A program made the position numbers and the translations under genes. DNA of 64,000 nt, taken from a plasmid. This document shows, in pieces, positions 6,316 through 59,550 of the stretch; position 1 is the stretch's first letter; each line of letters starts with the position of its first letter. The notes beneath the pieces are model-generated. The model saw only the letters and a list, made by a program, of their open reading frames with translations, was not told where the DNA came from and made no database searches. The DNA lies in assembly GCF_054482525.1 (NCBI RefSeq), contig NZ_JBTHVG010000003.1; one strand, written 5' to 3'.

Positions 6316-6332
6316 CGGCTAATAACCCGTAG
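6316..6332 (-). promoter_or_regulatory. GGTTATTAGCC-type box
   Basis: ctacgggttattagccg ~45 nt 5' of start 6274. Confidence 0.3.
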
Positions 6333-6394
6333 CAATATAATTTGCATTTTTTCTATTTCTGAAGACGCTTTTTAAATTAATATTTACTGAGTTA

Positions 6395-6673
6395 TCACAA
6401 CTTATTATTCTTCCCGTCTGCTGTTTTATTAATCCCCCAGTTAGTAATCACGCCAAGTCGGCGCAATTTTTCACGTTGTTCATAAATAAAAAAATCGCCA
6501 AGGCAGTCTTTTAAAACTTCACTATCCTGATATTTTATTTTTTGAAGCATCCTCGCAACTATGGCGCGTTTCAGGAATATGGCTGCATCAGACTCAAGCA
6601 TTTGTGAGGACTGTCTGACGGTCTCCTGCATGTCGACGATACTGCTGAGCTTTCGTCTGACCACGCTTAGCAT
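6395..6673 (-). CDS. hypothetical protein
   Basis: ORF. Confidence 0.3.
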   Translation of the reverse strand: MLSVVRRKLSSIVDMQETVRQSSQMLESDAAIFLKRAIVARMLQKIKYQDSEVLKDCLGDFFIYEQREKLRRLGVITNWGINKTADGKNNKL

Positions 6674-6857
6674 AGTGTCCGGGAACCGCTTAGCGGCTGA
6701 ATGTAACCCGCAACAACGTTACGCATTGTTTTACTCACTGCAATTTTCCATTTAAGTCTGTTTGTTCCACCAGCTGCTAACATCAGCGTTATTCATCCTG
6801 AGGTTTCGCCCGCGATTGACAGATCAGAGGCAGCATGGATGAAATTGCCAGAGTAGA

Positions 6858-7139
6858 TCACTGCATACGCGAATAGTGGTTTGTATTCAGTTCTGCGTTT
6901 GCCTGCTTTTCCAGTGCTGTCATAACCCGGCGGAGCATCGCCAGAGCCTGAACAGGCGAGCTCCCAAACTGCACTTTCACTTCAGCCGTATCATGATCCT
7001 GAATCAGGTCGAGTATATTCACTTCGATCCCTGCCCCGTTTTCATCTTTTGCCGTGCACTGAATACTTACCCGGGTCACCGAATCCGTCAGGACTGGCAG
7101 TGGGTTAGTTTTGTCTACGTTGATAACAGCCTTCTTCAT
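6858..7139 (-). CDS. hypothetical protein
   Basis: ORF immediately downstream of a ParB-like gene. Confidence 0.3.
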   Translation of the reverse strand: MKKAVINVDKTNPLPVLTDSVTRVSIQCTAKDENGAGIEVNILDLIQDHDTAEVKVQFGSSPVQALAMLRRVMTALEKQANAELNTNHYSRMQ

Positions 7140-7204
7140 TGCCCTGTTTCCCCTTGTCCTGAAAAAGTTACCGACCCGTCCGGATGGAGGGGTCGGTCAG
7201 AAAA

Positions 7205-8389
7205 TCATGACTGTCCCTTGTTCATCTTATCAGCATGCTTACGCAGGTACTCTTTCAGGTCAGCATGAGCGTTGATGATATCGTTCATTTCATCATTGGT
7301 CAGAACAAGCGTGTAAGTATCAGTACTGACAGATTCACCTTCTTTAAGCTTGGCTTCTTCAGCAATACGTTCAAAAATCGGGATCGCGGTGTCTGCAATG
7401 ACGGTCACAGTCTTTTTGTTCAGAACGCTGGACATGGAAGGTGCTTTACCTGCCGGGTTCTGTTTAGGAGCGCTGTCCTTTGGAGCTGGAGCCGGTTCCT
7501 GTACCGGTGGCGTATCCAGCGTCTCCGTATTGCTTTCATCGTTCAGTTGATCCGGTACCGGGGTGTTATCGGTAGTATCATCTGCCGGTTGCTCAGCACC
7601 GATGTTTTCCGGAGTCTGCGGATCTGCCATGCGCTCTTCTACCTTGGCAGCTTTGACGAATTTCAGCGTGTTTTTCGTCGCCTTGCCATAGATGGAGATC
7701 GCTTTGTTGATGTTATCTACCGCATCCTCACCGCTGTACATATACTCGTCCAGTGCAACGTACATGCTCACCTGATCGCTCACAAGCATGGTCTGTAGTT
7801 CAGAAGGCAGGTCCAGTACGCGAACCATCTGGCGAAGATGCTGCTCTGATTTACCACGTTTTTTTGCCAGTTCCGCAAAGGTCTTAGGCTCTTCTTTATC
7901 TTCAACCAGACGCTTAATTGAAAGCGCTTCAGCTACGACAGACAGCGCCAGGTTGGAGTTGCCGGTCAGGGTGAAGAGTTCTGCTTTTGAAGCGCTACCG
8001 CGAAACTCTTCGCAGCGAATACGAGTAATGCGTTCACGCCCTTCTGCTTCCAGCTGGCGGTTTGCAATAGCGATGGAACGGATACGGCAAGCCCCCTGAC
8101 GCAGTACAGGTACGCCATTAACCATCTGAACAACGATAGGCGTCACGCTGAACGGGTCTTCCATGTAGGCATCGGCCAGGCTGTTCAGGTGTTCCACAAC
8201 GTGAGGCATTGAATAGTAGAGCTCGCCCATACCGGCCGTGCGGGTGTTAAAGCCTTCCTGCTCTACAACAACCGAAGGGTCAATGATAAGGCCGTTGCCT
8301 TTACGGGCACCGTTACCAGTGCGTTCCAGGTAACCACGAAGGCTGATTTCGTTGCTGTTGTTTTTTACTTCAGTTTCGATTGCGGACAT
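7205..8389 (-). CDS. ParB-like nuclease-domain protein (paralog 1)
   Basis: ParB/Srx-type N-terminal motif 'VLRQGACRIRS', HTH-like segment, acidic Pro-rich C-terminus; ~400-bp upstream leader with two palindromic motif copies. Confidence 0.6.
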   Translation of the reverse strand: MSAIETEVKNNSNEISLRGYLERTGNGARKGNGLIIDPSVVVEQEGFNTRTAGMGELYYSMPHVVEHLNSLADAYMEDPFSVTPIVVQMVNGVPVLRQGACRIRSIAIANRQLEAEGRERITRIRCEEFRGSASKAELFTLTGNSNLALSVVAEALSIKRLVEDKEEPKTFAELAKKRGKSEQHLRQMVRVLDLPSELQTMLVSDQVSMYVALDEYMYSGEDAVDNINKAISIYGKATKNTLKFVKAAKVEERMADPQTPENIGAEQPADDTTDNTPVPDQLNDESNTETLDTPPVQEPAPAPKDSAPKQNPAGKAPSMSSVLNKKTVTVIADTAIPIFERIAEEAKLKEGESVSTDTYTLVLTNDEMNDIINAHADLKEYLRKHADKMNKGQS

Positions 8390-8476
8390 TTTTGTTCTCT
8401 TTTTTGGTTGGTTGTTTAACTGCGCTACAACACAACAATACCAGGTTCGACATTTTTCCTAATAGGTTGCGGAGAA

Positions 8477-8493
8477 GAAAAAGTAACTTTTTT
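8477..8493. promoter_or_regulatory. palindromic motif copy (gaaaaagtaactttttt)
   Basis: Read directly; 5' of ParB-like gene 7205-8389. Confidence 0.4.
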
Positions 8494-9490: not shown

Positions 9491-10435
9491 ATGAAACTTT
9501 CCCGTCAGACGACTTCTGATACTTCTGTTGATGGCCGTTCACGCGCATATGCCTGGGGCCGTGTCCATTATTTCATTATCGAACATGCACCAATGGCTGA
9601 GCTGGTCGCTATTGACGAGCTGCTGGAAAAAGCTGGCTGGAGCAATGACGGCTGTCCGAACTATGAGAAAGATGACGAGTTTGGTAATGCTGGTTACAGC
9701 TGTGGTTACTGGATCGATATTGACAGCGTGGGAAGCTTCAAGGCTGACTACAAACGTCTTAAGGGGGAGATTAGTGCGCATATCGCCTCAAAGGCGGCAG
9801 AGGTGGAGATCCGCGTACTGGACTCGATGTCCGACAAAGAATGTAAAGATGTTGCCTCGGTGGCATCTACTGTTCGCCGTGACTTACGTACGCAGTCCGA
9901 ATCGCTTCATTCACTGCGTACAATCGTAACGGTTGATCATTACAATCCCTATGTGACCACCAGCCGCCCGCTGAGCATTTCCGCCTGGACACTTATCCAC
10001 GACTGTCTGAAAACAGGCACCATCAATGACGTCTGTTCACGGTTGAGTTCATTAATCCTGCACTCTGAAGCCGCGATTGCCCGTTGTAAGGGAAGCTCCG
10101 ACTACTCTTCGGAACACGCTCAGCTATCGTTTTTTGCTGGTAACGACTATGTCACCAGACGCACCCTTGTTGATGCAGCTCACGAAGAGGCTCTGCGAAT
10201 GAACCGCCGCTTTGATGAACGCATTGCAATGAACGCGGATTCTGATGCCAGAAGGCTCCAGTGCGAATTCAACCTTAGCAACCATGTCGTACAGCGTAGG
10301 ACCGTTGAATCTGCTCATATCCAGGCACTCAATGAAGACGTCACCCGTTCACAGGCGGAACCACGCTGCCCTGGAAAGCTTCTTCTGAATATGACCAGTC
10401 ATGAGGAAGTGCGGGACTCACTGAGCGCCTGTTAG
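9491..10435 (+). CDS. hypothetical protein
   Basis: ORF in a plus-strand block of four genes. Confidence 0.35.
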   Translation: MKLSRQTTSDTSVDGRSRAYAWGRVHYFIIEHAPMAELVAIDELLEKAGWSNDGCPNYEKDDEFGNAGYSCGYWIDIDSVGSFKADYKRLKGEISAHIASKAAEVEIRVLDSMSDKECKDVASVASTVRRDLRTQSESLHSLRTIVTVDHYNPYVTTSRPLSISAWTLIHDCLKTGTINDVCSRLSSLILHSEAAIARCKGSSDYSSEHAQLSFFAGNDYVTRRTLVDAAHEEALRMNRRFDERIAMNADSDARRLQCEFNLSNHVVQRRTVESAHIQALNEDVTRSQAEPRCPGKLLLNMTSHEEVRDSLSAC

Positions 10436-10531
10436 TCCAGCGACACCCCCTGCGGCTCTACTACCGGGCCGCAGTCTGCTCCTGCCCAGATGGTGCCAGT
10501 GGTGTAATGAATTTGTTTAATAAGGCTAAGT

Positions 10532-11134
10532 ATGATGAATAAAGAACAACTAATCGACAAACTGGAACGCGTGGTATGTGGTCAGTACTCCTACGAAATG
10601 CAGGAGCTTGCGTATTCGGCCCTCTGCTGCATTAAAGGCACCCCGGACGACTGCGCTAAGTTCCCTGTTACGCGTCCGCTGCCTGACACCTTAGTGGACG
10701 TATGGGACGAAATCGGGCAATACCTTGGCACAGGCAAAGCCATTGAAACTCGCAGTTGCGGCGTTTCGCTTCTGCTTCATGGACACTGCTACGATTCAAA
10801 TCATGTGCTTTACTGGCGCAATGCTGGCGCACTTCCAGCAGCTTGCGATACGCCACTGGCTGGTGGGTCTCGCAAACTGTTCACCTGCTCAGCCTGTGGA
10901 GTGGACGGTCTGGATGAACCACCTGAAACCAGTTGCCACTGCTGCACAGAGGGGGCCCACTGGGTTGAGAGCAGGCTCTTCACCTCCGGGCAGGCAGACC
11001 CTGAAGAATTTAGACCCGTGGCGGTCGTGAAAGAGTGTGCAGGCTCAACGCCGGATGATCGGCTTATCTGGAGTGTGATTGAACAGCTCAACGGCGAACT
11101 GGCGGAAGGCGATAAACTATTTAAGCGACGCTGA
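10532..11134 (+). CDS. Cys-rich hypothetical protein
   Basis: ORF with several CxxC-like pairs. Confidence 0.35.
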   Translation: MMNKEQLIDKLERVVCGQYSYEMQELAYSALCCIKGTPDDCAKFPVTRPLPDTLVDVWDEIGQYLGTGKAIETRSCGVSLLLHGHCYDSNHVLYWRNAGALPAACDTPLAGGSRKLFTCSACGVDGLDEPPETSCHCCTEGAHWVESRLFTSGQADPEEFRPVAVVKECAGSTPDDRLIWSVIEQLNGELAEGDKLFKRR

Positions 11135-11187
11135 CAGATCACGGCAGCATTTATAACAGACGAACTCCAGAATAATTTAAAGCAACC

Positions 11188-11544
11188 ATGAACATGAAAA
11201 AGCCCAAAGCTGCATTACAGAATGCCATGAAAGAAGATGTGCCAGCTGTGACACAGATTCAGATGCGATCTACGGTTTCCAGAAAGGTTCGCTATGTAAA
11301 ACAGGCAAATCGAGAGGGTCTGAAATTATCTGAGTGGATGTCGCGGCATCTCGACGCTGTCTGTGATACCGCAGATGAGATTCATAAAGGCAAACGCTCA
11401 ACTCCGGTTGCGCCTGGGAAGATTCCCCCAGAGGTATACCAGGTGATATACGATCAGTGCGGCGGGTTCGTGGAGTGTGATGCTAATGCCCAGGTTATCT
11501 GGGAAGCCTGCCGTAATGCCATTCTTAACGGAGACAAAGGGTAA
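11188..11544 (+). CDS. hypothetical protein
   Basis: ORF. Confidence 0.3.
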   Translation: MNMKKPKAALQNAMKEDVPAVTQIQMRSTVSRKVRYVKQANREGLKLSEWMSRHLDAVCDTADEIHKGKRSTPVAPGKIPPEVYQVIYDQCGGFVECDANAQVIWEACRNAILNGDKG

Positions 11545-11574
11545 ACGGCAGGTATCGCCTGTCATTTTACCCTT

Positions 11575-11793
11575 GTGAGGACAATACTGATGAACCATGA
11601 GAGCCGAACTGTATACCTGAACACGGCCATTGAGGCCCTGCTGAAAGCTGAGGCGGCTCTGAACGATCTGGCATTAGCCTATGAGCTTAAACCTGATGAA
11701 AAGGCAAGCGCATGCCATCCCAGAACCGGCACACTTTCCACTGCGTCCCAGGTAAAAAAACTCCGCCGTGTCCTTGAGAAGCAGAAGGTATGA
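11575..11793 (+). CDS. hypothetical protein
   Basis: ORF. Confidence 0.25.
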   Translation: MRTILMNHESRTVYLNTAIEALLKAEAALNDLALAYELKPDEKASACHPRTGTLSTASQVKKLRRVLEKQKV

Positions 11794-12199: not shown

Positions 12200-13538
12200 C
12201 ATAAGCGCTAACTTAAGGGTTGTGGTATTACGCCTGATATGATTTAACGTGCCGATGAATTACTCTCACGATAACTGGTCAGCAATTCTGGCCCATATTG
12301 GTAAGCCCGAAGAACTGGATACTTCGGCACGTAATGCCGGGGCTCTAACCCGCCGCCGCGAAATTCGTGATGCTGCAACTCTGCTACGTCTGGGGCTGGC
12401 TTACGGCCCCGGGGGGATGTCATTACGTGAAGTCACTGCATGGGCTCAGCTCCATGACGTTGCAACATTATCTGACGTGGCTCTCCTGAAGCGGCTGCGG
12501 AATGCCGCCGACTGGTTTGGCATACTTGCCGCACAAACACTTGCTGTACGCGCCGCAGTTACGGGTTGTACAAGCGGAAAGAGATTGCGTCTTGTCGATG
12601 GAACAGCAATCAGTGCGCCCGGGGGCGGCAGCGCTGAATGGCGACTACATATGGGATATGATCCTCATACCTGTCAGTTCACTGATTTTGAGCTAACCGA
12701 CAGCAGAGACGCTGAACGGCTGGACCGATTTGCGCAAACGGCAGACGAGATACGCATTGCTGACCGGGGATTCGGTTCGCGTCCCGAATGTATCCGCTCA
12801 CTTGCTTTTGGAGAAGCTGATTATATCGTCCGGGTTCACTGGCGAGGATTGCGCTGGTTAACTGCAGAAGGAATGCGCTTTGACATGATGGGTTTTCTGC
12901 GCGGGCTGGATTGCGGTAAGAACGGTGAAACCACTGTAATGATAGGCAATTCAGGTAATAAAAAAGCCGGAGCTCCCTTTCCGGCACGTCTCATTGCCGT
13001 ATCACTTCCTCCCGAAAAAGCATTAATCAGTAAAACCCGACTGCTCAGCGAGAATCGTCGAAAAGGACGAGTAGTTCAGGCGGAAACGCTGGAAGCAGCG
13101 GGCCATGTGCTATTGCTAACATCATTACCGGAAGATGAATATTCAGCAGAGCAAGTGGCTGATTGTTACCGTCTGCGATGGCAAATTGAACTGGCTTTTA
13201 AGCGGCTCAAAAGTTTGCTGCACCTGGATGCTTTGCGTGCAAAGGAACCTGAACTCGCGAAAGCGTGGATATTTGCTAATCTACTCGCCGCATTTTTAAT
13301 TGACGACATAATCCAGCCATCGCTGGATTTCCCCCCCAGAAGTGCCGGATCCGAAAAGAAGAACTAACTCGTTGTGGAGAATAACAAAAATGGTCATCTG
13401 GAGCTTACAGGTGGCCATTCGTGGGACAGTATCCCTGACAGCCTACAAAACGCAATTGAAGAACGCGAGGCATCGTCTTAACGAGGCACCGAGGCGTCGC
13501 ATTCTTCAGATGGTTCAACCCTTAAGTTAGCGCTTATG
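12200..13538 (+). mobile_element. IS186 (IS4 family), complete
   Basis: Transposase recognised from memory as IS186; terminal inverted repeats cataagcgctaacttaaggg / cccttaagttagcgcttatg; flanked by duplicated GC-rich gggggttgccccc target. Ends +/- a few bp. Confidence 0.85.
12249..13367 (+). CDS. IS186 transposase
   Basis: 372-aa ORF 'MNYSHDNWSAILAHIGKPEELD...' with IS4-family 'YRLRWQIELAFKRLK' motif. Confidence 0.85.
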   Translation: MPMNYSHDNWSAILAHIGKPEELDTSARNAGALTRRREIRDAATLLRLGLAYGPGGMSLREVTAWAQLHDVATLSDVALLKRLRNAADWFGILAAQTLAVRAAVTGCTSGKRLRLVDGTAISAPGGGSAEWRLHMGYDPHTCQFTDFELTDSRDAERLDRFAQTADEIRIADRGFGSRPECIRSLAFGEADYIVRVHWRGLRWLTAEGMRFDMMGFLRGLDCGKNGETTVMIGNSGNKKAGAPFPARLIAVSLPPEKALISKTRLLSENRRKGRVVQAETLEAAGHVLLLTSLPEDEYSAEQVADCYRLRWQIELAFKRLKSLLHLDALRAKEPELAKAWIFANLLAAFLIDDIIQPSLDFPPRSAGSEKKN

Positions 13539-13561
13539 GGGGTTGCCCCCCTCTTTGTCAG

Positions 13562-13720
13562 CTACTTACCGGATTCGTAGGCCAGGATAGCAAATACCTC
13601 CCTTGTTCCGTCTTTCATCCGCAACTCGCAAAGCGAGTTTCGTGTGAGCCAGGTGAATATCAACAGCGTTAAACAAACTATTAATATGCACAAAACAATG
13701 GGTTGGTTCGGCATTTTCAT
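13562..13720 (-). CDS. hok: Hok/Gef-family type I toxin
   Basis: 52-aa product '[52 protein letters not shown]' closely resembles Hok/FlmA; an overlapping mok-like extension reaches 13777. Confidence 0.75.
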
Positions 13721-13818
13721 GGCCTTCTTCTCCTTGCATTTAAGCAGGCAAGAGGCTACGCTGTGTGTGACTAGCATACAGGGGCCTCGGGTTGTACTGA
13801 CCCCAGAAAGTTGGACAG

Positions 13819-14670
13819 TTAAACACGAGGCATATAGGTCTGATTCCGATATTCAATTGGAGTCAGACCTTTTAATTTCAGGCTAATTCTTCTGCTGTTG
13901 TAGTATTCAATATATTCCGTAACAGCATCCTTCAGCTCGCTTATATTACTGAACTCATCAAGATAAAAACACTCCGACTTTAAGGTTCCAAAGAAACACT
14001 CCACCACAGCATTATCCAGACAATTGCCTTTTCTGGACATGCTTTGTTTAATACCATGTTCTTTAAGGATATTTTGATATCTTCTCATACGATACTGCCA
14101 TCCCTGGTCAGAGTGCAGAACAGGATGCTCGTGAGGATTAAGCTTTTTGAATGCCTGATCGAGCATATTCTCGACCATGTTCATCACTGGTCTTTCCGAA
14201 AGGCTGTAAGAAATAACTTCGTTGTTGAAGAGATCTATTACTGGAGACAAATACAGCTTGCGCCCATTGACTGCAAATTCAGTAACATCGGTAACCCACT
14301 TCTCGTTTGGCCGCGTAGCCTTGAAATCTCTTTGGAGAACATTGGGGGCGGTTTGCCCTACCTCTCCTCTGTAAGAGCGGTATCGCTTGACCTTAATCGC
14401 TGCCTTCAGTGAGAGGATTCCCATCAGGCGCTGAACAGCTTTATGGTTAATCTGTTTCCCTTCTCGATGAAGAGACAGCGTTACCCTACGGTATCCGTAT
14501 CGGCCTCTATTCTCATGATAAATCTCACCAATACGCTTTTTAACGTCCGCATACTTGTCAGGCTTGCTGAGAGCCTTTAGATGGTAATAAAACGTACTGC
14601 GCGGTATCTCCGCAGCCCTGAGAAGCTCATCAAGAGGATAAAACTGCCTTAGCTCGTTGAGTACTTTCAC
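13819..14670 (-). CDS. IS150 OrfB (IS3-family transposase catalytic part)
   Basis: 283-aa ORF overlapping orfA end; DDE integrase-like. Confidence 0.8.
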
Positions 14671-15188
14671 TTTTTCGTGGGATGAGCTAAGGCTTTCAGC
14701 TTTTTTAGATACACAAGCCGCGTTTCAAGAAATCGAACTTGCCTTTCAAGATCCTCAATGCGTCGGTCTTTTGACAGCTCCAATGCTGATGCCGCTTTTT
14801 CTGGATCAACTGATATTGCAATGTTTCTTTTGGTGCCAATCTTGAGCGCGCGTAAACCAGCTTCTCCGCGCTCTTCATAAACCTTCAGCCACCTGGCTAC
14901 AGAACCACTACCAGCAAGCATAAAGTGAGCAGCAGCCTGATTAAGGGACATGTGCTGCTCGATCACCGCTTTCACGACCTTAATACGCAACTCAGGATCA
15001 GCACTAACACCTTTAGGTTTGGGAATTAAACCTTTTTCTCCATGTTTTTCATAGAGGGCAACCCATGTCCTGACCTGGGTTCGGGGGACACCAAAACGTG
15101 CCGAGATGATCCTGTAACCATCATCAGTAGTGAAGTAGTGATTCACGACTTCAAGGCGCTTTTCAAAAGGGTATTTTGGCTTTGACAT
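14667..15188 (-). CDS. IS150 OrfA (IS3-family transposase N-terminal HTH part)
   Basis: 173-aa ORF inside IS150. Confidence 0.8.
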   Translation of the reverse strand: MSKPKYPFEKRLEVVNHYFTTDDGYRIISARFGVPRTQVRTWVALYEKHGEKGLIPKPKGVSADPELRIKVVKAVIEQHMSLNQAAAHFMLAGSGSVARWLKVYEERGEAGLRALKIGTKRNIAISVDPEKAASALELSKDRRIEDLERQVRFLETRLVYLKKLKALAHPTKK

Positions 15189-16997: not shown

Positions 16998-17309
16998 TTA
17001 TCGCATATAACGCTGTTGCATAAACAGATACAGATAACCCTCAGGAGAAAACATGCAAAGGTTATCAGTGATAACCGCATCCAGATACCGAGTGTCAGTC
17101 TGTAAACGTTTTATCACCAGAAAATGTGCTGCCGCAGCCTTAATGCCAGAACTACCGTTTACAACATTATGTATACCCGCTTCGAATAACGAACGAGCAT
17201 GAATTACCTTTTCCCGGGCCGCTTCGATCTCCGCATTAATAACGCATTGCCGCGCCTGGATGACTGCCTCTCCGGTTAAATCGCGGAAATTCATTAGAGA
17301 TGTGATCAT
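16998..17309 (-). CDS. hypothetical protein
   Basis: ORF; GGTTATTAG-like box upstream. Confidence 0.3.
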   Translation of the reverse strand: MITSLMNFRDLTGEAVIQARQCVINAEIEAAREKVIHARSLFEAGIHNVVNGSSGIKAAAAHFLVIKRLQTDTRYLDAVITDNLCMFSPEGYLYLFMQQRYMR

Positions 17310-17531
17310 GATTAACTCTCCAGATTATGTGGAATCATTATAACAACTGGCATCCCGCCACAAATAACCTGAGAAAAATTCTTTGAAATATTCCTATATA
17401 TAAGGAATTACAGTCGGAAAAGAAACGATGAAATAGCGCCGACCGCTTAAAATCGATAAATTAAAATGGACGGCACTGGAATGAAAAACTGAAAGTAGTA
17501 AGACCGTAATTATCCTTCACGGATGTAAGCT

Positions 17532-19614: not shown

Positions 19615-19660
19615 ATCGCCTCCTCTGTTAATGTGAAACAAATATAACAAAGTGGCTTAC

Positions 19661-19677
19661 CCGGCTAATAACCTGAG
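19661..19677 (-). promoter_or_regulatory. CTCAGGTTATTAGCC-type box
   Basis: Gene-orientation sequence ctcaggttattagccgg, ~50 nt 5' of ATG 19614. Confidence 0.35.
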
Positions 19678-20129
19678 CAGAAAGTTTTCGCACTTTGTTT
19701 GAAAACAACTTTTCTGCTCAGGTTAATGTTAAAGTCGCTGTGTAAAAGATAAAGGGCACTAAAGATGATTTAAGCATCAAACAGACTAAATCGGATTCCG
19801 TCTTTTATATCGCTTTTAAAATAGAATGAATGAAATATAAATTTAGCGTTTATGATTGAACGCTGTAGAGGTTGATTTATCCAGTGATATTCAGTTTGGG
19901 GCCTTAAAAAGGTTTTATTTTGGATTCGAATTACAAAGGGAGCACCGACATTTTTCTGGGGGCTCCCGCAGAGAAAAAGCGGTGAGGCTATGAAGACGAA
20001 GAGGAGGTATTCGACGAAATACTGTATGGCCACAGGAGAGCTTCAGCACCCATATCCTGCCGTCTCGCTCGCCTGTAATGATTTCAACATGTACAACGTC
20101 ATACCACGTAGTTGTATTTCTCACTTTGT

Positions 20130-30436: not shown

Positions 30437-31057
30437 TTAATCAGCCTCAAGATTCTGGAACTCAATGAGCTTTTGCTCACACTCCTCCCTGCCCCACGAT
30501 CCCTGCCAGTCACAGATGTCCCGGTACTTACTTTCCAGCTTATCCATCTGTGCGAGATTAGCTGTTGCGAAGTCTGTCCATATGTCATGCCAGCAAGCGT
30601 TGTACGTAACGCCAGCTGGTGGACAATACTCCATTGCATCAGCATTAATAATTTCAACGCGAAGATCGGTTGCAAACGAGGCTGCAACGAGGTTAATAAC
30701 ATCCTGTTCTTTTTCGATTACCGTGACATGGGTTACATCGTCTTTCTGAAGAATGGCGTGGAGCACCATACCAAGACCAAGACCATTAATGAGCACCCGC
30801 CCGGTGGCTCGCTCTATAAAATCCTGGCAGGTTCGGATCTCCATCGGGGTATTGGACATCACCACATCCCAGCCGTTGGACAAGCGGCGATATCTACCGG
30901 GCGGGATAAACTCATCTGTATTACCAGTACACTCGGCACGAAGGGCGAGGGTCAGCGCCTTATCTGTGGTAATTTCGAAAGTGTCCAGTTTCCAAGTTCC
31001 GGACTTGCCGTCTTTAACGGGTAAATCAGAAAAGCAGCTCTTCATCGAGGCAACCAA
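30437..31057 (-). CDS. class I SAM-dependent methyltransferase (substrate unknown)
   Basis: Gly-rich SAM loop 'VLINGLGLGMV' and downstream acidic motif. Confidence 0.5.
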   Translation of the reverse strand: MVASMKSCFSDLPVKDGKSGTWKLDTFEITTDKALTLALRAECTGNTDEFIPPGRYRRLSNGWDVVMSNTPMEIRTCQDFIERATGRVLINGLGLGMVLHAILQKDDVTHVTVIEKEQDVINLVAASFATDLRVEIINADAMEYCPPAGVTYNACWHDIWTDFATANLAQMDKLESKYRDICDWQGSWGREECEQKLIEFQNLEAD

Positions 31058-31458: not shown

Positions 31459-31522
31459 TTGTGCCTCCAGCTCAGGTTGAGGTTAATTTAGCGTTGCCCC
31501 GGTTCACCGGGGCAAGAATAAA

Positions 31523-31951: not shown

Positions 31952-32045
31952 TTTACCCGTCCCCGTCCATATTCATGATACGGTAATGATACCAGGTCGA
32001 TATCATTACCTAATAACTTGGTGAAAGAAAATCTGTAATTTTTAG

Positions 32046-32423: not shown

Positions 32424-32469
32424 AAAACCTCCTTTTCATCTGTACTTATTATACTGTTACCCAACCCCC

Positions 32470-32487
32470 AGCTAATAACCTCCCAGC
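32470..32487 (-). promoter_or_regulatory. GGTTATTAGC-type box
   Basis: ctgggaggttattagctg ~50 nt 5' of start 32423. Confidence 0.35.
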
Positions 32488-34837: not shown

Positions 34838-34888
34838 AATGTGATTCCTCCGGTTAGTTCTGGAGTAATCATGACAGAATGAATCTAC

Positions 34889-34905
34889 TGGCTAATAACC
34901 TGAGA
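34889..34905 (-). promoter_or_regulatory. CTCAGGTTATTAGCC-type box
   Basis: ctcaggttattagccag ~55 nt 5' of start 34837. Confidence 0.35.
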
Positions 34906-37662: not shown

Positions 37663-38157
37663 GGGTTGTCTCCTGATCAGGTTCCCCATGATACTTTTTC
37701 AGTGTTCGAGATCTTTTCGGGAAAATAGCTAATTTTAATGTTTTTCTTTTCTGCCCGGCGGGACCTGTTTTGTTCCATTTTTATCAGTGAATGTAATGAG
37801 ACCGATTCGTCCACTGTTAACAGTGTAAAAGCGAGGTTGAAAGCCAGCTTTGAGAAGGTTTTCAATAGCTGAAAAAAAATCTTTTTTGAGCATTGGTTTC
37901 AAGATGGTTTTCCTTTTATGCCCGGTGCCGCCGGGACGGTGGCATTAAATATACGCCATGTAAGTAAATTAATTTTTACCCATTTGATTGTCAATACAAA
38001 CAAAAAATAAACCATGTTTATTATTTTACCAGCGATGCTATTTTAAAGTCCGTCTAAAATAAAAAACCAAAAAGTTAAATTTGAAGCCATCCTTCCTAAA
38101 TTCATTTCTTGCGCATATTAGCCCCTGCTTTAAGTATATAATTTTTGAAAAAGTTGT

Positions 38158-38176
38158 CTGGAGGTTATTAGCTCGT
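38158..38176 (+). promoter_or_regulatory. GGTTATTAGC-type box (plus-strand gene)
   Basis: ctggaggttattagctcg ~50 nt 5' of ATG 38223. Confidence 0.35.
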
Positions 38177-38222
38177 GCATCTGGATTGTTAATATAAAGC
38201 CAACACAGAAAAGGAAAACAAA

Positions 38223-38987
38223 ATGTATAAATTAGTATCTCCTCGTGAACTGACTGAGATTATTACCGGTTTACTGCTTAAACCTGAACTCCTTGGTGAG
38301 CTGGACTCACCAGAAAAGCATCGGATGTTTATGGCAGATTTAGGCCGGGTGGTGGCAGAACATTGTGGAGGTCTGGTAAACAGCGTCGTCTTGCCAGGAG
38401 CTGAAGTTACAGTGCCGGATGGGTTACCGCTTAACGGCCAGCCAGTACGTTATCTCGGAATCAAAGAGAGCATCCCTCACCTCCTTGTAGAGCCTGATGC
38501 TTCCTTACCTTCGCTCGCTAAAAACGTCTGGATGTATGCAGATCCTGAAGGCTGGAAAGAACATTTTGGAGCTGAGGAAGACTGCCTTACTCATGAAATG
38601 ATGCAGCTGTTCCGTAAAGGTATCCAGGCTCTTCAGAAGGAGCATGATACCCCTGAAATTAGCCTCACACTTCAGGACTGGCGCCTGGAGGAGGAAACAC
38701 TGAGAGAAGAGGACAGTCAGGCCTATCAGGTCAGCGTTACCGGCCAACATAACATCCACTGTGAAGTTGTTAACAAGGAAGGTAACCCCTGTTTTGGTGT
38801 CATGTTCGAAATCGATCAGGGTGTGCCTGCCTTACACATCAACACCGGCGGGGATATGTTGCTCCACATTCATTGCGCCCATAACGGACTCGTTCTGACC
38901 CCTGATGCAAGCGGTCAGCGATTTGAGAAGGCTCCCGTTGACCGCTTCGCTTATAACAGCCCATCCCTGCTGTTGTCTGCCGACTAA
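38223..38987 (+). CDS. hypothetical protein
   Basis: ORF; GGTTATTAG box ~50 bp upstream on plus strand. Confidence 0.4.
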   Translation: MYKLVSPRELTEIITGLLLKPELLGELDSPEKHRMFMADLGRVVAEHCGGLVNSVVLPGAEVTVPDGLPLNGQPVRYLGIKESIPHLLVEPDASLPSLAKNVWMYADPEGWKEHFGAEEDCLTHEMMQLFRKGIQALQKEHDTPEISLTLQDWRLEEETLREEDSQAYQVSVTGQHNIHCEVVNKEGNPCFGVMFEIDQGVPALHINTGGDMLLHIHCAHNGLVLTPDASGQRFEKAPVDRFAYNSPSLLLSAD

Positions 38988-39004
38988 CCAAGGCCAAATC
39001 TGAA

Positions 39005-44354: not shown

Positions 44355-46055
44355 ATCGGAGAACCACGGCAGCCTGGCGGCTGCAAATTGAAAACCGCCC
44401 CGGTTCGTCCTGTTGTTGCCGCACGCCCCGCAGAATATGTATGCTCTGAGGACCTGTTTTATTAAGGACTCATCCCCTTATGTTGACCCGCAAAAGTATC
44501 GATACAGTTCTGCTCTCTGTTGGTGCTGAGAAGCTCTCACAACGAGAATGGGACTGGATGAAAATGCTCAAACCCATGGACCCACCACCTGCGATGGTGA
44601 CGACCTCCATCCTGAAGCGCCGTGGCGATACAGCAGCCCTTACCCTGCTACAGGATACCGGGGTTTAATCCATCCTCATGTTGTCCGGTTTTACTCCCCG
44701 CCCTCTGAAACGTCTGTTCACAGCCAACCAGTGCTGGACGTCCTTCCTGGATGCGGGCGGTCTGCGCGATATCGAGGTTGAAGCCGTCACCAAAATGCTG
44801 GCCTGCGGCACACGGATACTGGGTGTAAAAGAGTTCGGGTGTGATAACCCGGACTGTCAGCACGTAAAGTACCTGACCAACTCATGCGGCAGCCGTGCCT
44901 GCCCGTCCTGCGGAAAGAAGGCCACAGACCTGTGGACAGCAACACAGCTGAATCGTCTTCCTGACTGCGACTGGGTACATCTGGTCTTCACCCTGCCGGA
45001 CACGCTGTGGCCGGTGTTCGAAAGCAACCGCTGGCTGCTGAATGACGTGTGCCGTCTGGCGGTGGAGAATCTGCTGTATGCCGCCCGAAAACGGGGGCTG
45101 GAACCCGGTATCTTCTGCGCCATCCACACGTATGGCCGTCGTCTCAACTGGCATCCGCATGTACATGTGTCTGTAACCTGTGGAGGTCTGAATAAGCATG
45201 GTCAGTGGAAAAAGCTGAGCTTCCTGAAAGACGCGATGCGTTCACGGTGGATGTGGAATATGCGGCAGCTGCTTCTGAAAGCGTGGTCAGAGGGGATGGC
45301 AATGCCGGAGTCGTTGTCACATATCACGACGGAATCACAGTGGAGAAGCCTGGTGCTGAAATCCGGCGGAAAATACTGGCATGTGTACATGTCGAAGAAG
45401 ACAGCCGGAGGGCGGAATACGGCACGCTACCTGGGTCGTTATCTGAAGAAGCCACCAATAGCGGCTTCCCGACTGGCTCATTACAACGGAGGGGCAAGCC
45501 TGAGCTTCCGTTACCTGGACCACAAAACGGGAGAAACGGCGACGGAAACGCTGACACAGCGTGAGCTGGTCGCGAGGCTGAAACAGCACATCCCGGAGAA
45601 GTTTTTTAAGATGGTGAGGTACTTCGGGTTCCTTGCCAACCGTGTGTGTGGAGAGAAGCTGCCGCAGGTGTACCGTGCACTGGGGATGGATAAACCGGAA
45701 CCAGTGGCGAAAGTGTGCTATGCACAAATGGTGAAACAGTTCCTGAGTCGTGACCCGTTCGAATGCGTGCTGTGTGGCTGCCGGATGGTATACCGCCGGG
45801 CCATTGCGGGGCTGAATGTATCAGGGCTGAAGAAAAACGCGCGGGATATCAGTCTACTGAGGTATATGCCGGCCTGACACAGGCTAAGTGTGCCCGGGAA
45901 TCGGTGAAAGTATAAAAAACAGCCTGTTACGGTATAAAAATCGACCATACAGAGAGGGAAACCACCGGAGTGGTGGGAAAAGCAGAAAGGCTCACGTGGC
46001 ATAAGGCGTGGACAATGGTATCGACTGGTTTTTCAATTTCCTATACGTCAAGCCT
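44355..46055 (+). mobile_element. IS91-family insertion sequence (IS1294-like); ends approximate
   Basis: Rolling-circle transposase gene plus small upstream ORF; no inverted repeats; right end near '...tttttcaatttcctatacgtcaag'. Interrupts the iteron field. Confidence 0.6.
44678..45877 (+). CDS. IS91-family rolling-circle (HUH/Y2) transposase
   Basis: N-terminal Zn-binding 'CQHVKYLTNSCGSRACPSCG', HUH-like 'WHPHVHV', C-terminal Tyr-containing region. Confidence 0.75.
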   Translation: MLSGFTPRPLKRLFTANQCWTSFLDAGGLRDIEVEAVTKMLACGTRILGVKEFGCDNPDCQHVKYLTNSCGSRACPSCGKKATDLWTATQLNRLPDCDWVHLVFTLPDTLWPVFESNRWLLNDVCRLAVENLLYAARKRGLEPGIFCAIHTYGRRLNWHPHVHVSVTCGGLNKHGQWKKLSFLKDAMRSRWMWNMRQLLLKAWSEGMAMPESLSHITTESQWRSLVLKSGGKYWHVYMSKKTAGGRNTARYLGRYLKKPPIAASRLAHYNGGASLSFRYLDHKTGETATETLTQRELVARLKQHIPEKFFKMVRYFGFLANRVCGEKLPQVYRALGMDKPEPVAKVCYAQMVKQFLSRDPFECVLCGCRMVYRRAIAGLNVSGLKKNARDISLLRYMPA

Positions 46056-56155: not shown

Positions 56156-57847
56156 TCATAGGACTTCCTCTTGTTGAATACGTTCGGCGTACAGGATGCG
56201 AACCGAAACGGTCGTGTTTTCAAACTCGTTCTCAAAAACGTCCATCCATTCCGTCCGGAATTCTTCCCCCAAAAGGTTATCGAGCCCCTGAAGAGATAAT
56301 GGAAGAACGGCTGCTAGAGATCCCCCGGCTGCGAGATGAGATGCAGCTGCCTGGAGATGCAGCCTGGCCCGGTTATCGGCAAAAGGTGGGTTCATCACGA
56401 CATAATCAAACTTCTTCTGTTGATTAGACTTAGACCATGTGAGGAAGTCAGCTTCTGTCGTATCGTATCCCTTAGCCCGGGAGATAAGGCAATTCAAAGT
56501 ATCAAGCTCGATGCCAGTAACGATCACACCGGCAGGGAATGATTTAAGCAAATCCGCATGGCCAATATTAGGCTCCAGGAGGGTATCCCCTTCCCCTGCA
56601 CCAAGCAGGGAAGATACATATTCGCTGATTCGGCAAGATGAAGGGTAAAACTGATGCGATACAATATCAGGCATCTCCCCTATCTGGCCGATGTAACGAA
56701 TAACCTCACACGGATCATAGGAAAATGTCACATCGTATTTTGTTACTGTTGCCCCTAAGAACCGAAGGGTGTCAGCGGCAACACTCGAAGATTTGCGTTC
56801 GGCGAGAGACCCTAAAGATGTCCAGCAACTCCATTTATTGTCCCCGTCATTTTTAAACATCAGTTCAGAAAGCTGCATCCGGGTATCAAAGTCGATGCAC
56901 TGCTTAAGTACAGGGAATGCCTCCAAAGATTTCTTGCTATGAGCCATACGGTCGGCAGGTAATGCCAGCGGTACGATAGCTGATAAAATATTGTTAAGCC
57001 GCTCGGCGATATCAGGGTGGACGTCAATATGCATTGATCCATTTTTGTAAACCCTGAAACGAATACTGTTGCCATCGATGCAGATCCATTTTCTGAACCC
57101 CTCATGTTCGACCAACGCCTCAACCAATGATTTGGTGTTATGGATCGCCTTCACCTGTTCGCCACGGAAGAATGCGCATATAACGCGGAGCTCGCTCAGC
57201 GGTGAAATGCCAGACTCTTTAAAATCCACCCTTAATTTCTGCCAGGGGTATTTAGACGGCTCGCAAACTCCGGTAGTGATCATGCGGGTGGAGAACCCAA
57301 AAGCTTTGTTTGTCTTGTGACTGCGGCTCAGAGACTGGAAGACGTCGTAAACCCTTTCTTTAATAAATTGATTGCGGTCATTAAGCAAAGCAACGACTGT
57401 GCCCACTACAGCGTCAGCTGTGAAATCAGGGATCACCTGAGGCGGCATAATATAACGGTCGGCCGTAAACTGCTTATCCCATTCGTTACGTTTGGCATCC
57501 GACATGATAGGCAAAACATCAGTGAGTGCCATAACGCATTTCCAGTATTCTGATCTCAGAGCGTTTTCTGCGAACAAAGCATCCGCTTCTGAGATGCTGT
57601 GGTTGTAGCCTGAGAGATAAGAATAAAGTTTCTGGTGATTGTGGGTTTTGAACTGGACAGCCATGAGTTTCAACAAGCAGAGTTCATCATTATAGGACTC
57701 AACAAGATCCGCGATAATGCCGAGCTCTTTGCGCATATCTGGAAGAAATGTTTCAGGAGAGCTAACCACCAGGCTATGAGAGGTTGTTAAAGCCAGTACG
57801 CTGTGACCTGCATTATCGGGTTTAGCTTCAGAATCAAGAGATGACAT
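56156..57847 (-). CDS. N6-adenine DNA methyltransferase-like protein with ~380-aa N-terminal extension (long form)
   Basis: C-terminal 'ITGIEL' and 'DYVVMNPPF' motifs paralogous to 39005-39829. Confidence 0.6.
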   Translation of the reverse strand: MSSLDSEAKPDNAGHSVLALTTSHSLVVSSPETFLPDMRKELGIIADLVESYNDELCLLKLMAVQFKTHNHQKLYSYLSGYNHSISEADALFAENALRSEYWKCVMALTDVLPIMSDAKRNEWDKQFTADRYIMPPQVIPDFTADAVVGTVVALLNDRNQFIKERVYDVFQSLSRSHKTNKAFGFSTRMITTGVCEPSKYPWQKLRVDFKESGISPLSELRVICAFFRGEQVKAIHNTKSLVEALVEHEGFRKWICIDGNSIRFRVYKNGSMHIDVHPDIAERLNNILSAIVPLALPADRMAHSKKSLEAFPVLKQCIDFDTRMQLSELMFKNDGDNKWSCWTSLGSLAERKSSSVAADTLRFLGATVTKYDVTFSYDPCEVIRYIGQIGEMPDIVSHQFYPSSCRISEYVSSLLGAGEGDTLLEPNIGHADLLKSFPAGVIVTGIELDTLNCLISRAKGYDTTEADFLTWSKSNQQKKFDYVVMNPPFADNRARLHLQAAASHLAAGGSLAAVLPLSLQGLDNLLGEEFRTEWMDVFENEFENTTVSVRILYAERIQQEEVL

Positions 57848-57978
57848 TTTACCGGTCCTTTAGAAAAAACTTTTACCAGGATAGCAACGTCGCTCAGTAA
57901 CCTAATAGGTTCAGTGACACGAAAAAGTTTTTTATGTCTCTGAATAAAACTTAAAGATGTCAACTCATAGAAAGAAGC

Positions 57979-58008
57979 AAAAAAAAAGCCCCGCATAAAC
58001 GGGGCAAG
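57979..58008 (-). terminator. rho-independent terminator (minus strand)
   Basis: gccccg-cataaa-cggggc stem followed on the minus strand by a T-run, 3' of the ParB-like gene. Confidence 0.55.
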
Positions 58009-58094
58009 AACGATACATGGAGGTTTAAAAAAGGCGGGCAAAAAGCCTGAATCCTTAATGACTCTGACAAAACCAGCACTTTGCCAAAAGTAAA

Positions 58095-59258
58095 TTATTC
58101 TGCGTCCGGCTGTGGGTCAGTATCCTGATCGGTCTCTTCCCCTGCCTTCTTAGCATTTTTTTTACGTGGGTATTTTGGCTTCTCACCATTAAGTTTTGCC
58201 TGACGATTCTCCGCACGGCGAAGCTGCTTGTTCTCTGATTCTGTGATCTCTTTTGAAAGATTTCTCAACATCTCCAGAGTACTGCGGTTCAACGTAATGT
58301 TGATTTCTTCGTCAGCACTTGAATCTGTCAGCTCCGGCAATTCAATATCCCCCAGTTTCTGTAATAAGCTGGTGGTGATGAGTTTGACGCCTTCTACGGC
58401 TTTTGTGGCAATAACCGGCGGAATCCGTGCTGGCTTGAAGTCTGAAGGTCTGACTCGTACCTGACCATGTTGGGTTTTTTTCACCGTGATGCCATTCGCA
58501 TCGGCCTGCTCAAGTTCTGCGATCATCTTCTTGATACGTGAAATTGCTTCTGTTTCGCCGAGCTCATCGATCAGTGAAAGCACGTTAACATACGAAATAG
58601 CGTCAGCATGAATCCATTTCTTGATAACAACAGAACAGGTTGTCAGGCGGATAAGAGAACTGATGGTCGTCGGGCTTTTATTTTCACGTTGAGCAATTCG
58701 TTCGAGTGACCAGCCAGCAAGAGAATGTAGGCGACGATAGGACTCGCCAAGCGCAACAGGAGAAAGCGCAAGACCACGGTTACCATCAATGGTCGCGAGC
58801 TCACAGCCAATTTCATCTTCTTTAATCTCAACGCAAAGGATTGTGATGTCATGATCTTCATCACATGCCATCATTGCGGCTTTTAAACGGCAGTGCCCCT
58901 GGCGAACAAAAGGTACCCCATCAATGACACGTACTCGGATAGGGTCTACATAGTCACCTCGAATGTAGGCATTCTTGATGTTGTAGATGTGTTCTTCAAC
59001 CTCAGGGAGCTTATAGTAATCGTCACCCATTCCCATTTCGCGGGAGTTGAAGCCTGGCGTGACCTGAATTACTGAAGGGTGGATAGCCCATGCTTTCTGG
59101 TCACTTACTTCAGTACAAAGTTCAGGGTTTGCATCACGGAACTGTTTAAGCCCAGTGACGTAACGGCCTGTGCCAGTAACTACTGAAAAGGCAACATGGG
59201 CCGTTTTAAAGACCTTGTCATTAGCTTGCTGTGTAGGTTCTGTCAGTAAAACACTCAT
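58095..59258 (-). CDS. ParB-like nuclease-domain protein (paralog 2)
   Basis: 'VPFVRQGHCRLKAA' ParB/Srx motif, HTH-like segment, basic/acidic C-terminal tail. Confidence 0.6.
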   Translation of the reverse strand: MSVLLTEPTQQANDKVFKTAHVAFSVVTGTGRYVTGLKQFRDANPELCTEVSDQKAWAIHPSVIQVTPGFNSREMGMGDDYYKLPEVEEHIYNIKNAYIRGDYVDPIRVRVIDGVPFVRQGHCRLKAAMMACDEDHDITILCVEIKEDEIGCELATIDGNRGLALSPVALGESYRRLHSLAGWSLERIAQRENKSPTTISSLIRLTTCSVVIKKWIHADAISYVNVLSLIDELGETEAISRIKKMIAELEQADANGITVKKTQHGQVRVRPSDFKPARIPPVIATKAVEGVKLITTSLLQKLGDIELPELTDSSADEEINITLNRSTLEMLRNLSKEITESENKQLRRAENRQAKLNGEKPKYPRKKNAKKAGEETDQDTDPQPDAE

Positions 59259-59535
59259 AGGGGCTCCGTTACATTTTTCTGCTTACTTTCTGCGTAGCGG
59301 GGATACTACCGAAAAAAAAATTCATAATTTTTCGCAAAAAAGGTACTTTTTGAGCCTATTCTGATTTTTTACAAAAAAAGGTGGCTCCCCATTACTTGTG
59401 ATGGCATAAAAATCGCTTCATAAACAAATACATAAATCCAAAACATAAAGTTCAGGTATAAGTGAGGAAAAATCTTATAAATCCGAAATGCTGAAAGTCA
59501 AAACTGTGCGTCTTAAACAACTTTTTTTTGCTCCC

Positions 59536-59550
59536 TAAGTTATTAGTTAA
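59536..59550 (+). promoter_or_regulatory. box variant (ctaagttattagtta) upstream of Dam-like gene
   Basis: ~60-75 nt 5' of the Dam-family gene start. Confidence 0.3.

Follow-up and report, generated by a model that had tools for sequence, protein, structure and literature searches.

A conserved family of IncHI plasmid backbone promoters without a canonical −35 element carries a lineage-specific box at that position

Introduction

The described promoter sets that come closest to the one reported here are those of the IncP Kor system, the CUP/ArdK regulon of IncN and IncW plasmids, and the activator-dependent promoters of phages. In the CUP/ArdK regulon, modules that consist of long, near-identical sequence blocks stand before anti-restriction and establishment-type genes, under one plasmid repressor, and among phages, the middle promoters of T4 frequently have a TGn motif. 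In IncP plasmids, the ParB-family protein KorB cooperates with the promoter-bound repressors KorA and TrbA, according to two studies (PMC2680271, PMC11790492). The known regulation of IncHI plasmids, through TrhR/TrhY, HtdA, and H-NS/Hha, is that of the transfer genes (PMC7366339). Here, we describe a 9-bp box, GGTTATTAG, that recurs at a fixed promoter position in a 64,000-nt stretch of plasmid DNA (contig NZ_JBTHVG010000003.1, assembly GCF_054482525.1; hereafter, the window, meaning this whole stretch), which nucleotide matches and plasmid typing identify as IncHI2 backbone. In Salmonella, E. coli, and Enterobacter, plasmids of the IncHI1 and IncHI2 types are important vehicles of multidrug resistance.

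Results

Thirteen promoters in the window share the box

The box GGTTATTAG occurs exactly seven times in the window against 0.48 expected, a count reached in none of 100 shuffles, and the 15-mer CTCAGGTTATTAGCC occurs exactly twice (19663-19677 and 34890-34904, both on the minus strand). Among all sites with no more than one mismatch to GGTTATTAG, nine are intergenic and share one architecture. These nine, seven on the minus strand and two on the plus strand, are the sites implied by an earlier note on this DNA, which had proposed that such a box stands upstream of start codons as a promoter element or regulator site; all nine were found, each oriented with its own gene. Three further members, which carry ACCTATTAG, were recovered with a position matrix, and a whole-plasmid scan gave a thirteenth, CCCTATTTG, upstream of a ParB-like gene (Table 1). 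A regular expression that joins the box, a spacer of 18-19 nt, and the −10 hexamer matched 13 times in the window, against 0.64 expected and a maximum of three in 100 first-order Markov simulations; one of these matches is an intragenic GGTTATTAG and is not counted among the 13 members. Over the members, the consensus is (G/A)(G/C)(T/C)TATT(A/T)G. The counts and simulations bear out the view that the box is a non-chance promoter or regulator element, its orientation dependence holds, and the original observation is both real and larger than stated, extending to 13 promoters. An exact GGTTATTAG at 26146-26154 (minus strand) lies inside a 149-amino-acid (aa) coding region, with neither a T/A tract nor a −10, and is probably a chance or cryptic site.

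All 13 promoters follow one layout of T/A tracts, box, spacer, a −10 of the form TAnnnT, and an A seven nt downstream. The spacer is 18 nt long at 12 sites and 19 nt at the other; the hexamer fits TAnnnT in 12 cases (TATAAT three times), with a single CATGAT, and TGn directly precedes it in eight. In a position matrix of 29 sites from three plasmid lineages, gathered with the regular expression TATT[AT]G, the −10 has A at position 2 and T at position 6 in 26 of 29 sites each, the T and G of the extended −10 are present in 24 and 22, and the A seven nt after the −10 is present in 24, preceded by a pyrimidine, as expected of a start site. Relative to this predicted start, the same matrix places the box at −39 to −31, a preferred CA at −41/−40, and A and T tracts at about −50 to −64. 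The tracts may act as an UP-like element, with an identity between orthologues of 0.75-0.88 at three tract positions, though the proximal subsite (−46 to −38) is taken by the flank of the box and not by A/T.

The distance from the end of the box to the start codon is 44-69 nt and so varies by 25 nt, which makes the −10 the fixed partner of the box. A near-constant distance of 45-75 nt to the start codon had been claimed; the range was close, but the constraint is to the −10. Predicted leaders are 14-39 nt long and have clear ribosome-binding sites. Terminator-like hairpins lie just upstream of two box promoters (27475-27487 and 35115-35131), indicating that those boxes open new transcription units.

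The position of the box is that at which a −35 element would sit, and the earlier note had suggested testing it as a −35/−10 element. As such a pair the suggestion fails: the box itself is no such pair, nor has it any likeness to TTGACA. A sigma-70 consensus scan of 26000-39000 listed 16 sites, none of which was one of the six box promoters there, because nothing TTGACA-like is present in them; the best −35 reading at box promoters, TTAGCC with a 16-nt spacer, matches TTGACA at three of six positions. Taken together, we regard it as very probable that the 13 form a real promoter family.

The promoters are conserved upstream of orthologous genes in IncHI relatives

A search of other plasmids, which had also been proposed, found the same promoters upstream of orthologues in IncHI1A, IncHI1B-type, R27, and a more distant IncHI-like plasmid, L018. 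The syntenic regions of the IncHI1A plasmid (L007), the IncHI1B-type plasmid (L009), and R27 have about 69% coding identity to the window. Across 16 box-anchored orthologue pairs, identity drops to 0.25-0.35 in the flanking sequence but reaches 0.75-0.8 over the three bases ahead of TATTAG, 0.75-1.0 over TGn and the −10, and 0.8-1.0 at −1/+1; the same conservation islands, box and −10, appear in alignments anchored solely on orthologous start codons. Between two IncHI2 sublineages, the boxes show 0/63 substitutions versus 7.3% in the upstream sequence. At the promoter of the ParB/KorB-like 394-aa gene (hereafter, ParB-394), the IncHI1A orthologue has GGTTATTAG where the window has ACCTATTAG, so the two box variants are interchangeable.

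The distribution of the box was examined on the IncHI2 reference plasmid NZ_LT795115.1 (246,444 bp; L002). All clear sites lie inside the region covered by the window, over a span of about 57 kb. The scan of this 246-kb plasmid found no box in the upstream regions of the tra operons (H, R, F, AC, htdA) and none in the resistance or tellurite regions. Likewise, an IncA/C-like island (L008) that shares the 794-aa PAPS-reductase-like gene with the window has no box promoters. This absence from the tra promoters and from the island sets the box regulon apart from the known transfer regulon, and a role of the box as a TrhR/TrhY site was rejected on its absence from tra promoters.

Two further candidates were seen outside the window. 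At about 41566-41600 of NZ_LT795115.1, a candidate box promoter reads CGTTATTAG-N18-TATGAT, its downstream gene having been lost to IS26. In transfer region 2 of R27 (L010), the lipoprotein gene R0004 is preceded by a degenerate candidate, GGTTGTTTG-N18-AATAAT (4012-4044, plus strand).

The box changes jointly at orthologous promoters of distant plasmids

Distant IncHI-like plasmids were fetched via homologues of ParB-394. L018 (59% identity) has the same box as IncHI2. In L013 (50%), the IncHI2-type box is absent, and six promoters consist of a T/A tract, CCCTTAACA, a spacer of strictly 16 nt, and TAnnnT; three of the six precede orthologues of the 98-aa, ParB-394, and 103-aa genes, whose promoters are of the GGTTATTAG type in the window. 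L019 (48%) has CCCTATTAG-N18 and CCCTTAGGA-N16 side by side, and L011 (44%) has CCCTTATGCA and GGTTATGYG. When aligned on the −10, every box type has TTA at −34 to −32 and differs around it. The CCCTTAACA box of L013 holds a near-consensus −35 (TTAACA, 16-nt spacer) with an invariant CC(C) just upstream, and the promoters that carry it are mostly without TGn. What is observed is thus a conserved promoter family in one backbone region, without a canonical −35 and with a lineage-specific box at that position.

As several orthologous promoters swapped their box together while their spacers are unrelated, the change points to a sequence-specific reader that changed along with it. Judged from the sequences, a coordinated change of this kind would be hard to explain without one, and we consider that a dedicated trans factor probably reads the box.

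The main alternative to any such factor is that the box is a residue of an ancestral promoter cassette, spread by duplication, with an unusual sigma-70 −35, which could be read as TTAGNN with a 16-nt spacer or as TATTAG with 18 nt, plus UP-like tracts and TGn. The common register of TTA in IncHI1/2, L013, L019, and L011 is consistent with a shared weak −35 that starts with TT, and T/A tracts together with TGn could suffice for activity. We nevertheless hold this reading to be improbable, since sigma-70 alone would not hold the non-consensus GGT, or the AG after TTA, across 13 paralogous promoters and at least four lineages in which the spacers are randomised. It also leaves unexplained both the joint change of box type at several orthologous promoters and the invariant CC(C) upstream of TTAACA in L013.

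Slightly less credible still is a reader common to Enterobacteriaceae hosts, or a methylation-sensitive switch in which an orphan methyltransferase of the regulon would modify adenines in TATTAG/CTAATA and so alter promoter activity after plasmid establishment. The presence of at least four DNA methyltransferases in the regulon and the failure of the search for a plasmid regulator speak for these possibilities, and TATTAG is not enriched in the window (28 versus about 31 expected), which is compatible with a hexamer-specific enzyme. A host factor, however, leaves lineage-specific box swapping among plasmids of the same hosts unexplained, and to our knowledge, no host-factor consensus sequence matches the box, which we count against a host protein.

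A plasmid-wide palindrome is distinct from the box

The palindrome that the earlier note had placed together with the box is a perfect one of 13 bp, AAAAGTTACTTTT, with 32 strand matches at up to two mismatches against 3.6 expected. Across the 246-kb plasmid, AAAGTWACTTT has 68 sites with no more than one mismatch against about five expected, the oriT and replication regions included, and it is nearly absent from the resistance region. Of the 12 box promoters checked, only 4 have a palindrome in the 200 bp upstream; at that of ParB-394, the copy AAAAAGTTACTTTTT is directly upstream (8479-8491). The notion of a modular leader of palindrome, box, and ribosome-binding site is not borne out, given that the palindrome is plasmid-wide, is near these 4 of 12 promoters, and is missing from the leader of the gene that starts at 34837, which had been one of the examples.

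Three ParB/KorB-like paralogues are encoded in the window (7205-8389, 58095-59258, and 62469-63524, all on the minus strand), in addition to the ParAB and ParMR systems of the plasmid, and the products of the first two are 32% identical. The palindrome is kept in all of the distant lineages while the box changes, and the two motifs therefore evolve independently; the recognition helix (SEQHxRQ) of the ParB-394 helix-turn-helix is likewise invariant across them. From the sequences, it is probable that the ParB/KorB-like proteins bind the palindrome and that some other factor reads the box. As a binding site for a ParB-like protein the box is unlikely, since the ParB-394 recognition helix and the palindrome stay constant where the box changes. 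The promoter of the gene for the 387-aa ParB-like protein, R0042 in R27, has a palindrome variant, AAAAAGTACCTTTTT, and no box; in the portion of the R27 tables consulted, R0042 is among the most highly expressed genes.

A plasmid-encoded regulator, tentatively a repressor, as the proposed reader of the box

In the model that we favour, sigma-70 RNA polymerase would use the −10, TGn, and upstream T/A tracts, and the box would be the docking site for a plasmid-encoded, sequence-specific regulator that ties the 13 operons into one regulon. A global repressor would sit over the −35 region of the box promoters, which would fire when the plasmid enters a new cell and would then be turned down as the repressor accumulates. 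By analogy, such repressor logic, as in the backbone regulons of IncP, IncN, and IncW plasmids, is the one that we favour, although the assignment of the factor as a repressor is tentative, being slightly more likely than an activator. The box lies wholly in the zone of sigma region 4, which we count in favour of a repressor. The near-consensus −35, mostly without TGn, in L013, versus TGn at most promoters without a −35 in IncHI1/2, looks like compensation and suggests promoters that are able to work alone. In R27 microarray data, steady-state signals are low for Dam (R0041, 80/144) and DUF4942 (R0043, 217/394) on a scale that extends to about 19,000 (PMC7366339); beyond such named anchors, R-numbers were matched to genes approximately.

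Several points weigh against this model. A missing activator would explain low steady-state expression as well as a repressor does, and the combination of fixed orientation, fixed spacing, and asymmetry would be more usual in a positive promoter element than in the operator of a dimeric repressor. The box is nearly without dyad symmetry beyond its inner TA-T-TA, with outer pairs complementary in 5 to 16 of 30 sites, and no compensating covariation between its arms was found in those 30 sites. Among about 30 window proteins searched with NCBIfam, PHROGs, and precomputed Pfam, the only regulator-type domains were ParB-like. The invariance of the box in the 29-site matrix and in the box-anchored pairs, both gathered with TATT[AT]G, is partly by construction, and start-codon-anchored orthologues tolerate the box variants GGTTGTTTG, GGTTGTTAG, and CCTTATTGG. 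No start-site data for box promoters were found in the literature, and the +1 positions are predicted ones. A dimeric palindromic operator is thus unsupported, on account of weak dyad symmetry and lack of covariation. Neither profile searches nor the whole-plasmid annotation by the NCBI Prokaryotic Genome Annotation Pipeline gave a homologue of the KorA, KorC, TrbA, or ArdK type, though small ribbon-helix-helix or helix-turn-helix proteins could escape these.

The foremost rival, which we rate as rather unlikely, is that the box is a positive promoter element: in place of −35 recognition, a plasmid-encoded activator or a sigma-70-remodelling factor would bind it and recruit RNA polymerase. Like the T4 middle or P1 late promoters, the operons would in that case form a timed class of expression and not a repressed one. 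The asymmetry and weak dyad symmetry of the box, its fixed orientation, a spacing of 18 nt in 12 of 13 sites (16 nt in all six of L013), the lack of a TTGACA-like −35, and the frequent TGn all suit an activator, as do the low steady-state signals of the two box-driven R27 genes that were identified by function. Dam (R0041) is also up 7.8-fold in an htdA mutant at 25°C, where TrhR/TrhY are free. The response to the htdA mutation, however, differs widely among box genes, which range from 1.5-fold to 7.8-fold or are not expressed; it is common to 139 of 181 expressed R27 genes and hence not box-specific, and this incoherence across box genes means that the R27 data do not separate repressor from activator. 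No protein like MotA, AsiA, Lpa, or Ogr and no sigma factor was annotated on the plasmid or detected with NCBIfam or PHROGs. In the L013 box, a near-consensus −35 is present that sigma region 4 should occupy, so that an activator would have little space there. Finally, R0004, with its candidate degenerate box, has 9779 units, among the highest in R27, which fits escape from a repressor better than weak activation, as a single case with a putative promoter assignment.

A bolder version, which we consider doubtful, is that the IncHI plasmids have a phage-like transcription module, in which a plasmid factor would take over −35 recognition for sigma-70 polymerase at a private class of promoters and its specificity would be re-set between lineages (GGTTATTAG-N18, CCCTATTAG-N18, CCCTTAGGA-N16, and CCCTTAACA-N16). 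If so, related plasmids that share a cell would operate "establishment" regulons that are orthogonal to one another.

Several candidates for the regulator were tried and rejected. The 98-aa first gene is frameshifted in IncHI1A while its promoter is intact, for a 92-aa basic protein, the matching stretch of IncHI1A has no annotated counterpart, and a 118-aa protein (11188-11544, plus strand) with a ribbon-helix-helix-like sequence pattern, judged by eye, is missing from the IncHI1A sequence examined. The 156-aa and 238-aa zinc-finger proteins are DnaJ-like and unlike DNA binders. Folding of six promoter regions as single-stranded DNA gave z values of −4.4 to +1.7 and no shared structure, and a single-stranded (Frpo-like) promoter, in which a long hairpin of the transferred strand recreates the −35 and −10, was rejected. 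The Dam gene and the resemblance of TTATTAG to part of the C1 operator of P1 had pointed to a P1-type plasmid prophage. We rejected this, as the window is IncHI2 backbone, had no nucleotide match in the phage collection, and gave no C1-like protein in PHROGs.

Genes of the regulon and their setting

The coordinates of all 13 promoters, of perfect palindrome copies, and of the alternative-box promoters are given in Table 1. The regulon codes for at least four DNA methyltransferases (Dam, DUF4942, N6_N4_Mtase, and a 253-aa methyltransferase), and the other box operons encode ParB-like proteins, a toxin, and many small proteins without a known role. Eleven of the 13 units are oriented alike, facing transfer region 1, an arrangement similar to the strand bias that has been reported among genes of leading regions (PMC11541004).

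Table 1. Positions of the box promoters and palindromes in the window and of alternative-box promoters in distant plasmids. Spacers run from the 9-bp box to the −10; L007 is IncHI1A and L009 is IncHI1B-type.
Feature	Sequence	Spacer (nt)	−10	TGn	Predicted +1	Position	Strand	Box position	Recovered by	Orthologous promoters
98-aa gene (5978-6274)	GGTTATTAG	18	TATAAT		6288	6295..6327	-	6319-6327	≤1 mismatch to GGTTATTAG	Box kept in IncHI1A (L007 2321) and L018 (11940); L013 has CCCTTAACA
ParB/KorB-like 394-aa gene (7205-8389)	ACCTATTAG	18	TATTGT	TGn		8435..8467	-	8459-8467	Position matrix	IncHI1A has GGTTATTAG
103-aa gene (16998-17309)	GGTTATTTG	18	TATAAT	TGn		17337..17369	-	17361-17369	≤1 mismatch to GGTTATTAG	IncHI1A: GGTTGTTTG-N18-TATAAT
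DUF957/DUF3085 operon	CTCAGGTTATTAGCC	18 after 9-mer	TATATT	TGn	19634	19641..19673	-	19665-19673	≤1 mismatch to GGTTATTAG	Conserved in IncHI1A (L007 9841) and pEC-IMPQ
263-aa gene and operon with 794-aa PAPS-reductase-like gene	GGTTATTAG	19	TATGAT	TGn		27342..27375	-	27367-27375	≤1 mismatch to GGTTATTAG	Conserved in L007 18738 and L009 14223
108-aa gene (27849-28175)	ACCTATTAGCCAG	18 after 9-mer	TATCAT			28214..28246	-	28238-28246	Position matrix	L007 19610 and L009 15097 have ACTTATTAGCCAG
142-aa gene (31523-31951)	AGTTATTAG	18	TATCAT	TGn		31986..32018	-	32010-32018	≤1 mismatch to GGTTATTAG	L009 20602 has GGTTATTAG
125-aa gene (32046-32423)	GGTTATTAG	18	TATAAT		32441	32448..32480	-	32472-32480	≤1 mismatch to GGTTATTAG	L009 21094
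156-aa zinc-finger/HigB-like toxin/315-aa operon	CTCAGGTTATTAGCCAG	18 after 9-mer	CATGAT	TGn	34861	34868..34900	-	34892-34900	≤1 mismatch to GGTTATTAG	tcaggttattagccag identical in L007 22116 and L009 23507, flanks different
254-aa gene and methyltransferase operon (38223 onward)	GGTTATTAG	18	TAATAT	TGn	38202	38163..38195	+	38163-38171	≤1 mismatch to GGTTATTAG	Both paralogues in IncHI1A and IncHI1B carry own box promoters
DUF4942 methyltransferase gene (56156-57847)	ACCTATTAGGT	18 after 9-mer	TATCCT	TGn		57878..57910	-	57902-57910	Position matrix	IncHI1A/R27 same in box and −10
Dam methyltransferase gene	AGTTATTAG	18	TACGAT			59538..59570	+	59538-59546	≤1 mismatch to GGTTATTAG	R27: CCTTATTGG-N18-TACCAT
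ParB-like 351-aa gene (62469-63524), probable weaker member	CCCTATTTG	18	TATCAT			63545..63577	-	63569-63577	Whole-plasmid scan	R27: GGTTATTTG-N18-TATCAT
Perfect palindromic 11-mer	AAAGT(T/A)ACTTT					First bases: 3431, 8480, 8606, 18395, 20602, 23333, 28382, 32594, 41583, 43807, 52198, 52263, 61203				
Alternative-box promoters, L013						1587, 2218, 4037, 9928, 15563, 16996				
Alternative-box promoters, L019						6950, 10001, 12535, 15360, 17699				
Alternative-box promoters, L011						7036, 9928, 16515, 20593				

Some of these loci have features of their own. The 98-aa gene is split, truncated, or frameshifted in IncHI1A (L007 1974-2270; R27, L017, 44884-45036), and its promoter GGTTATTAG-N18-TATAAT is intact there. 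At the DUF957 promoter, a 16-bp inverted repeat (AACCTGAGCAGAAAAG ... CTTTTCTGCTCAGGTT; 19665-19725, minus strand) takes in the left half of the box and gives a strong single-stranded fold (z = −4.4); it is absent from the IncHI1A orthologue. The 142-aa promoter has an extra inverted repeat, GGTAATGATA-N9-TATCATTACC (31975-32010, minus strand), over the spacer and −10, which is not conserved in L009 and which, from its sequence, may be a second, gene-specific operator. The HigB-like toxin gene at 34021-34837 (minus strand) has the 156-aa DnaJ-type zinc-finger protein before it and the 315-aa protein, annotated as a flavin reductase, after it, and so differs from the usual toxin-antitoxin pair.

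With a 12-kb stretch of the window as the query, there were matches to 1,161 plasmid records; they are mostly conjugative and come from Escherichia, Salmonella, and Enterobacter, and the matching records that were opened were typed IncHI2A, MOBH, and MPF_F. The ends of the window map to the reverse complement of NZ_LT795115.1 positions 201532 and 15272, across the origin of that record. The window is about 3.8 kb longer than the matching interval, probably because of insertion-sequence differences: insertion-sequence or transposase genes lie at 12249-15188 and 44678-45877, with locally higher G+C, and NZ_LT795115.1 bears different insertion-sequence copies. The start of the window lies within transfer region 1 (DUF4400, S49 peptidase, and NERD nuclease genes), and in the roughly 55 kb that follow, most genes are unnamed, with orphan methyltransferases, Ig-like proteins, and repHI2 besides; the far end is close to a replication gene of the RepB type. 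At 9491-11793 (plus strand), a divergent operon with raised G+C encodes a DUF5417 protein and proteins of 200, 118, and 72 aa; the C-terminal part of the last (ACHPR(T/S)G...) is found again in most IncHI-like lineages that were examined. Outside the window, the presumed oriT (NZ_LT795115.1 23400-23640, from mobI to the next gene) bears repeated inverted copies of AAAGTGACCCTATG / CATAGGGTCACTTT and two copies of the plasmid-wide palindrome.

Discussion

The box marks a plasmid backbone regulon with a shared promoter box, of a kind that is known; the box itself is undescribed in the literature searched. Full-text searches, with most subscription journals outside their scope, found no published description of the box and none of a regulator for these genes. 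On carriers of resistance such as these, the box marks out at least 13 operons as a second regulon, separate from the regulation of transfer, and the gene content of these operons is typical of plasmid establishment and anti-restriction regions. With a 9-bp element at a fixed promoter position, the question of its reader is directly testable and could expose a target for blocking plasmid establishment. The lineage-specific swap of the box is also a clear-cut case in nature of a cis element that changed in step with its reader, and interest would be higher if the reader proves to replace −35 recognition.

As on IncP-1 plasmids (RK2/RP4; KorA, KorB, KorC, and TrbA), a short conserved sequence recurs across many promoters of the backbone, fixed in position over a core element, and ParB-family (KorB-like) proteins occur alongside a dispersed 13-bp palindrome, here as three paralogues and AAAAGTTACTTTT. 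The IncHI box differs in being asymmetric and in lying over the −35 and not the −10, and it shows no sequence relationship to the operators of IncP. Homologues of KorA, KorC, or TrbA were not detected on IncHI2, and palindromes are near only 4 of the 12 box promoters checked. Repression is a feature of the IncP-1 system, whereas for the IncHI box it is our reading of the sequence.

The CUP/ArdK regulon of the leading regions of IncN (pKM101) and IncW (R388) likewise has repeated promoter modules, mostly in one orientation. In IncHI, by contrast, only about 9-15 bp and the −10 are conserved, the spacers are unrelated, and no ArdK homologue was found.

The middle promoters of T4, with their MotA box, and the late promoters of P1, which depend on Lpa, resemble the IncHI promoters in several ways: the −10 is a good one, TGn is frequent, TTGACA is lacking, and an asymmetric box stands in one orientation at a constant distance upstream of the −10. 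The IncHI box, however, lies at −39 to −31 and not at about −30 (MotA) or −22 (Lpa), and its sequence is another. PHROGs searches of 20 window proteins gave no MotA, AsiA, or Lpa homologue, and IncHI is a conjugative plasmid, not a phage.

Lastly, AcaCD/SetCD of IncA/C plasmids and SXT/R391 integrative and conjugative elements, and TrhR/TrhY-HtdA, are plasmid-encoded regulators of promoter sets within the MOBH family (PMC7366339). Unlike their targets, the IncHI box is absent from the upstream regions of tra operons and from the IncA/C-like island, and the whole-plasmid annotation includes no FlhC/FlhD-like genes. Each of the closest analogues, the IncP Kor system, the IncN/IncW CUP-ArdK regulon, and the activator-dependent phage promoters, thus fails at least one of the features tested.

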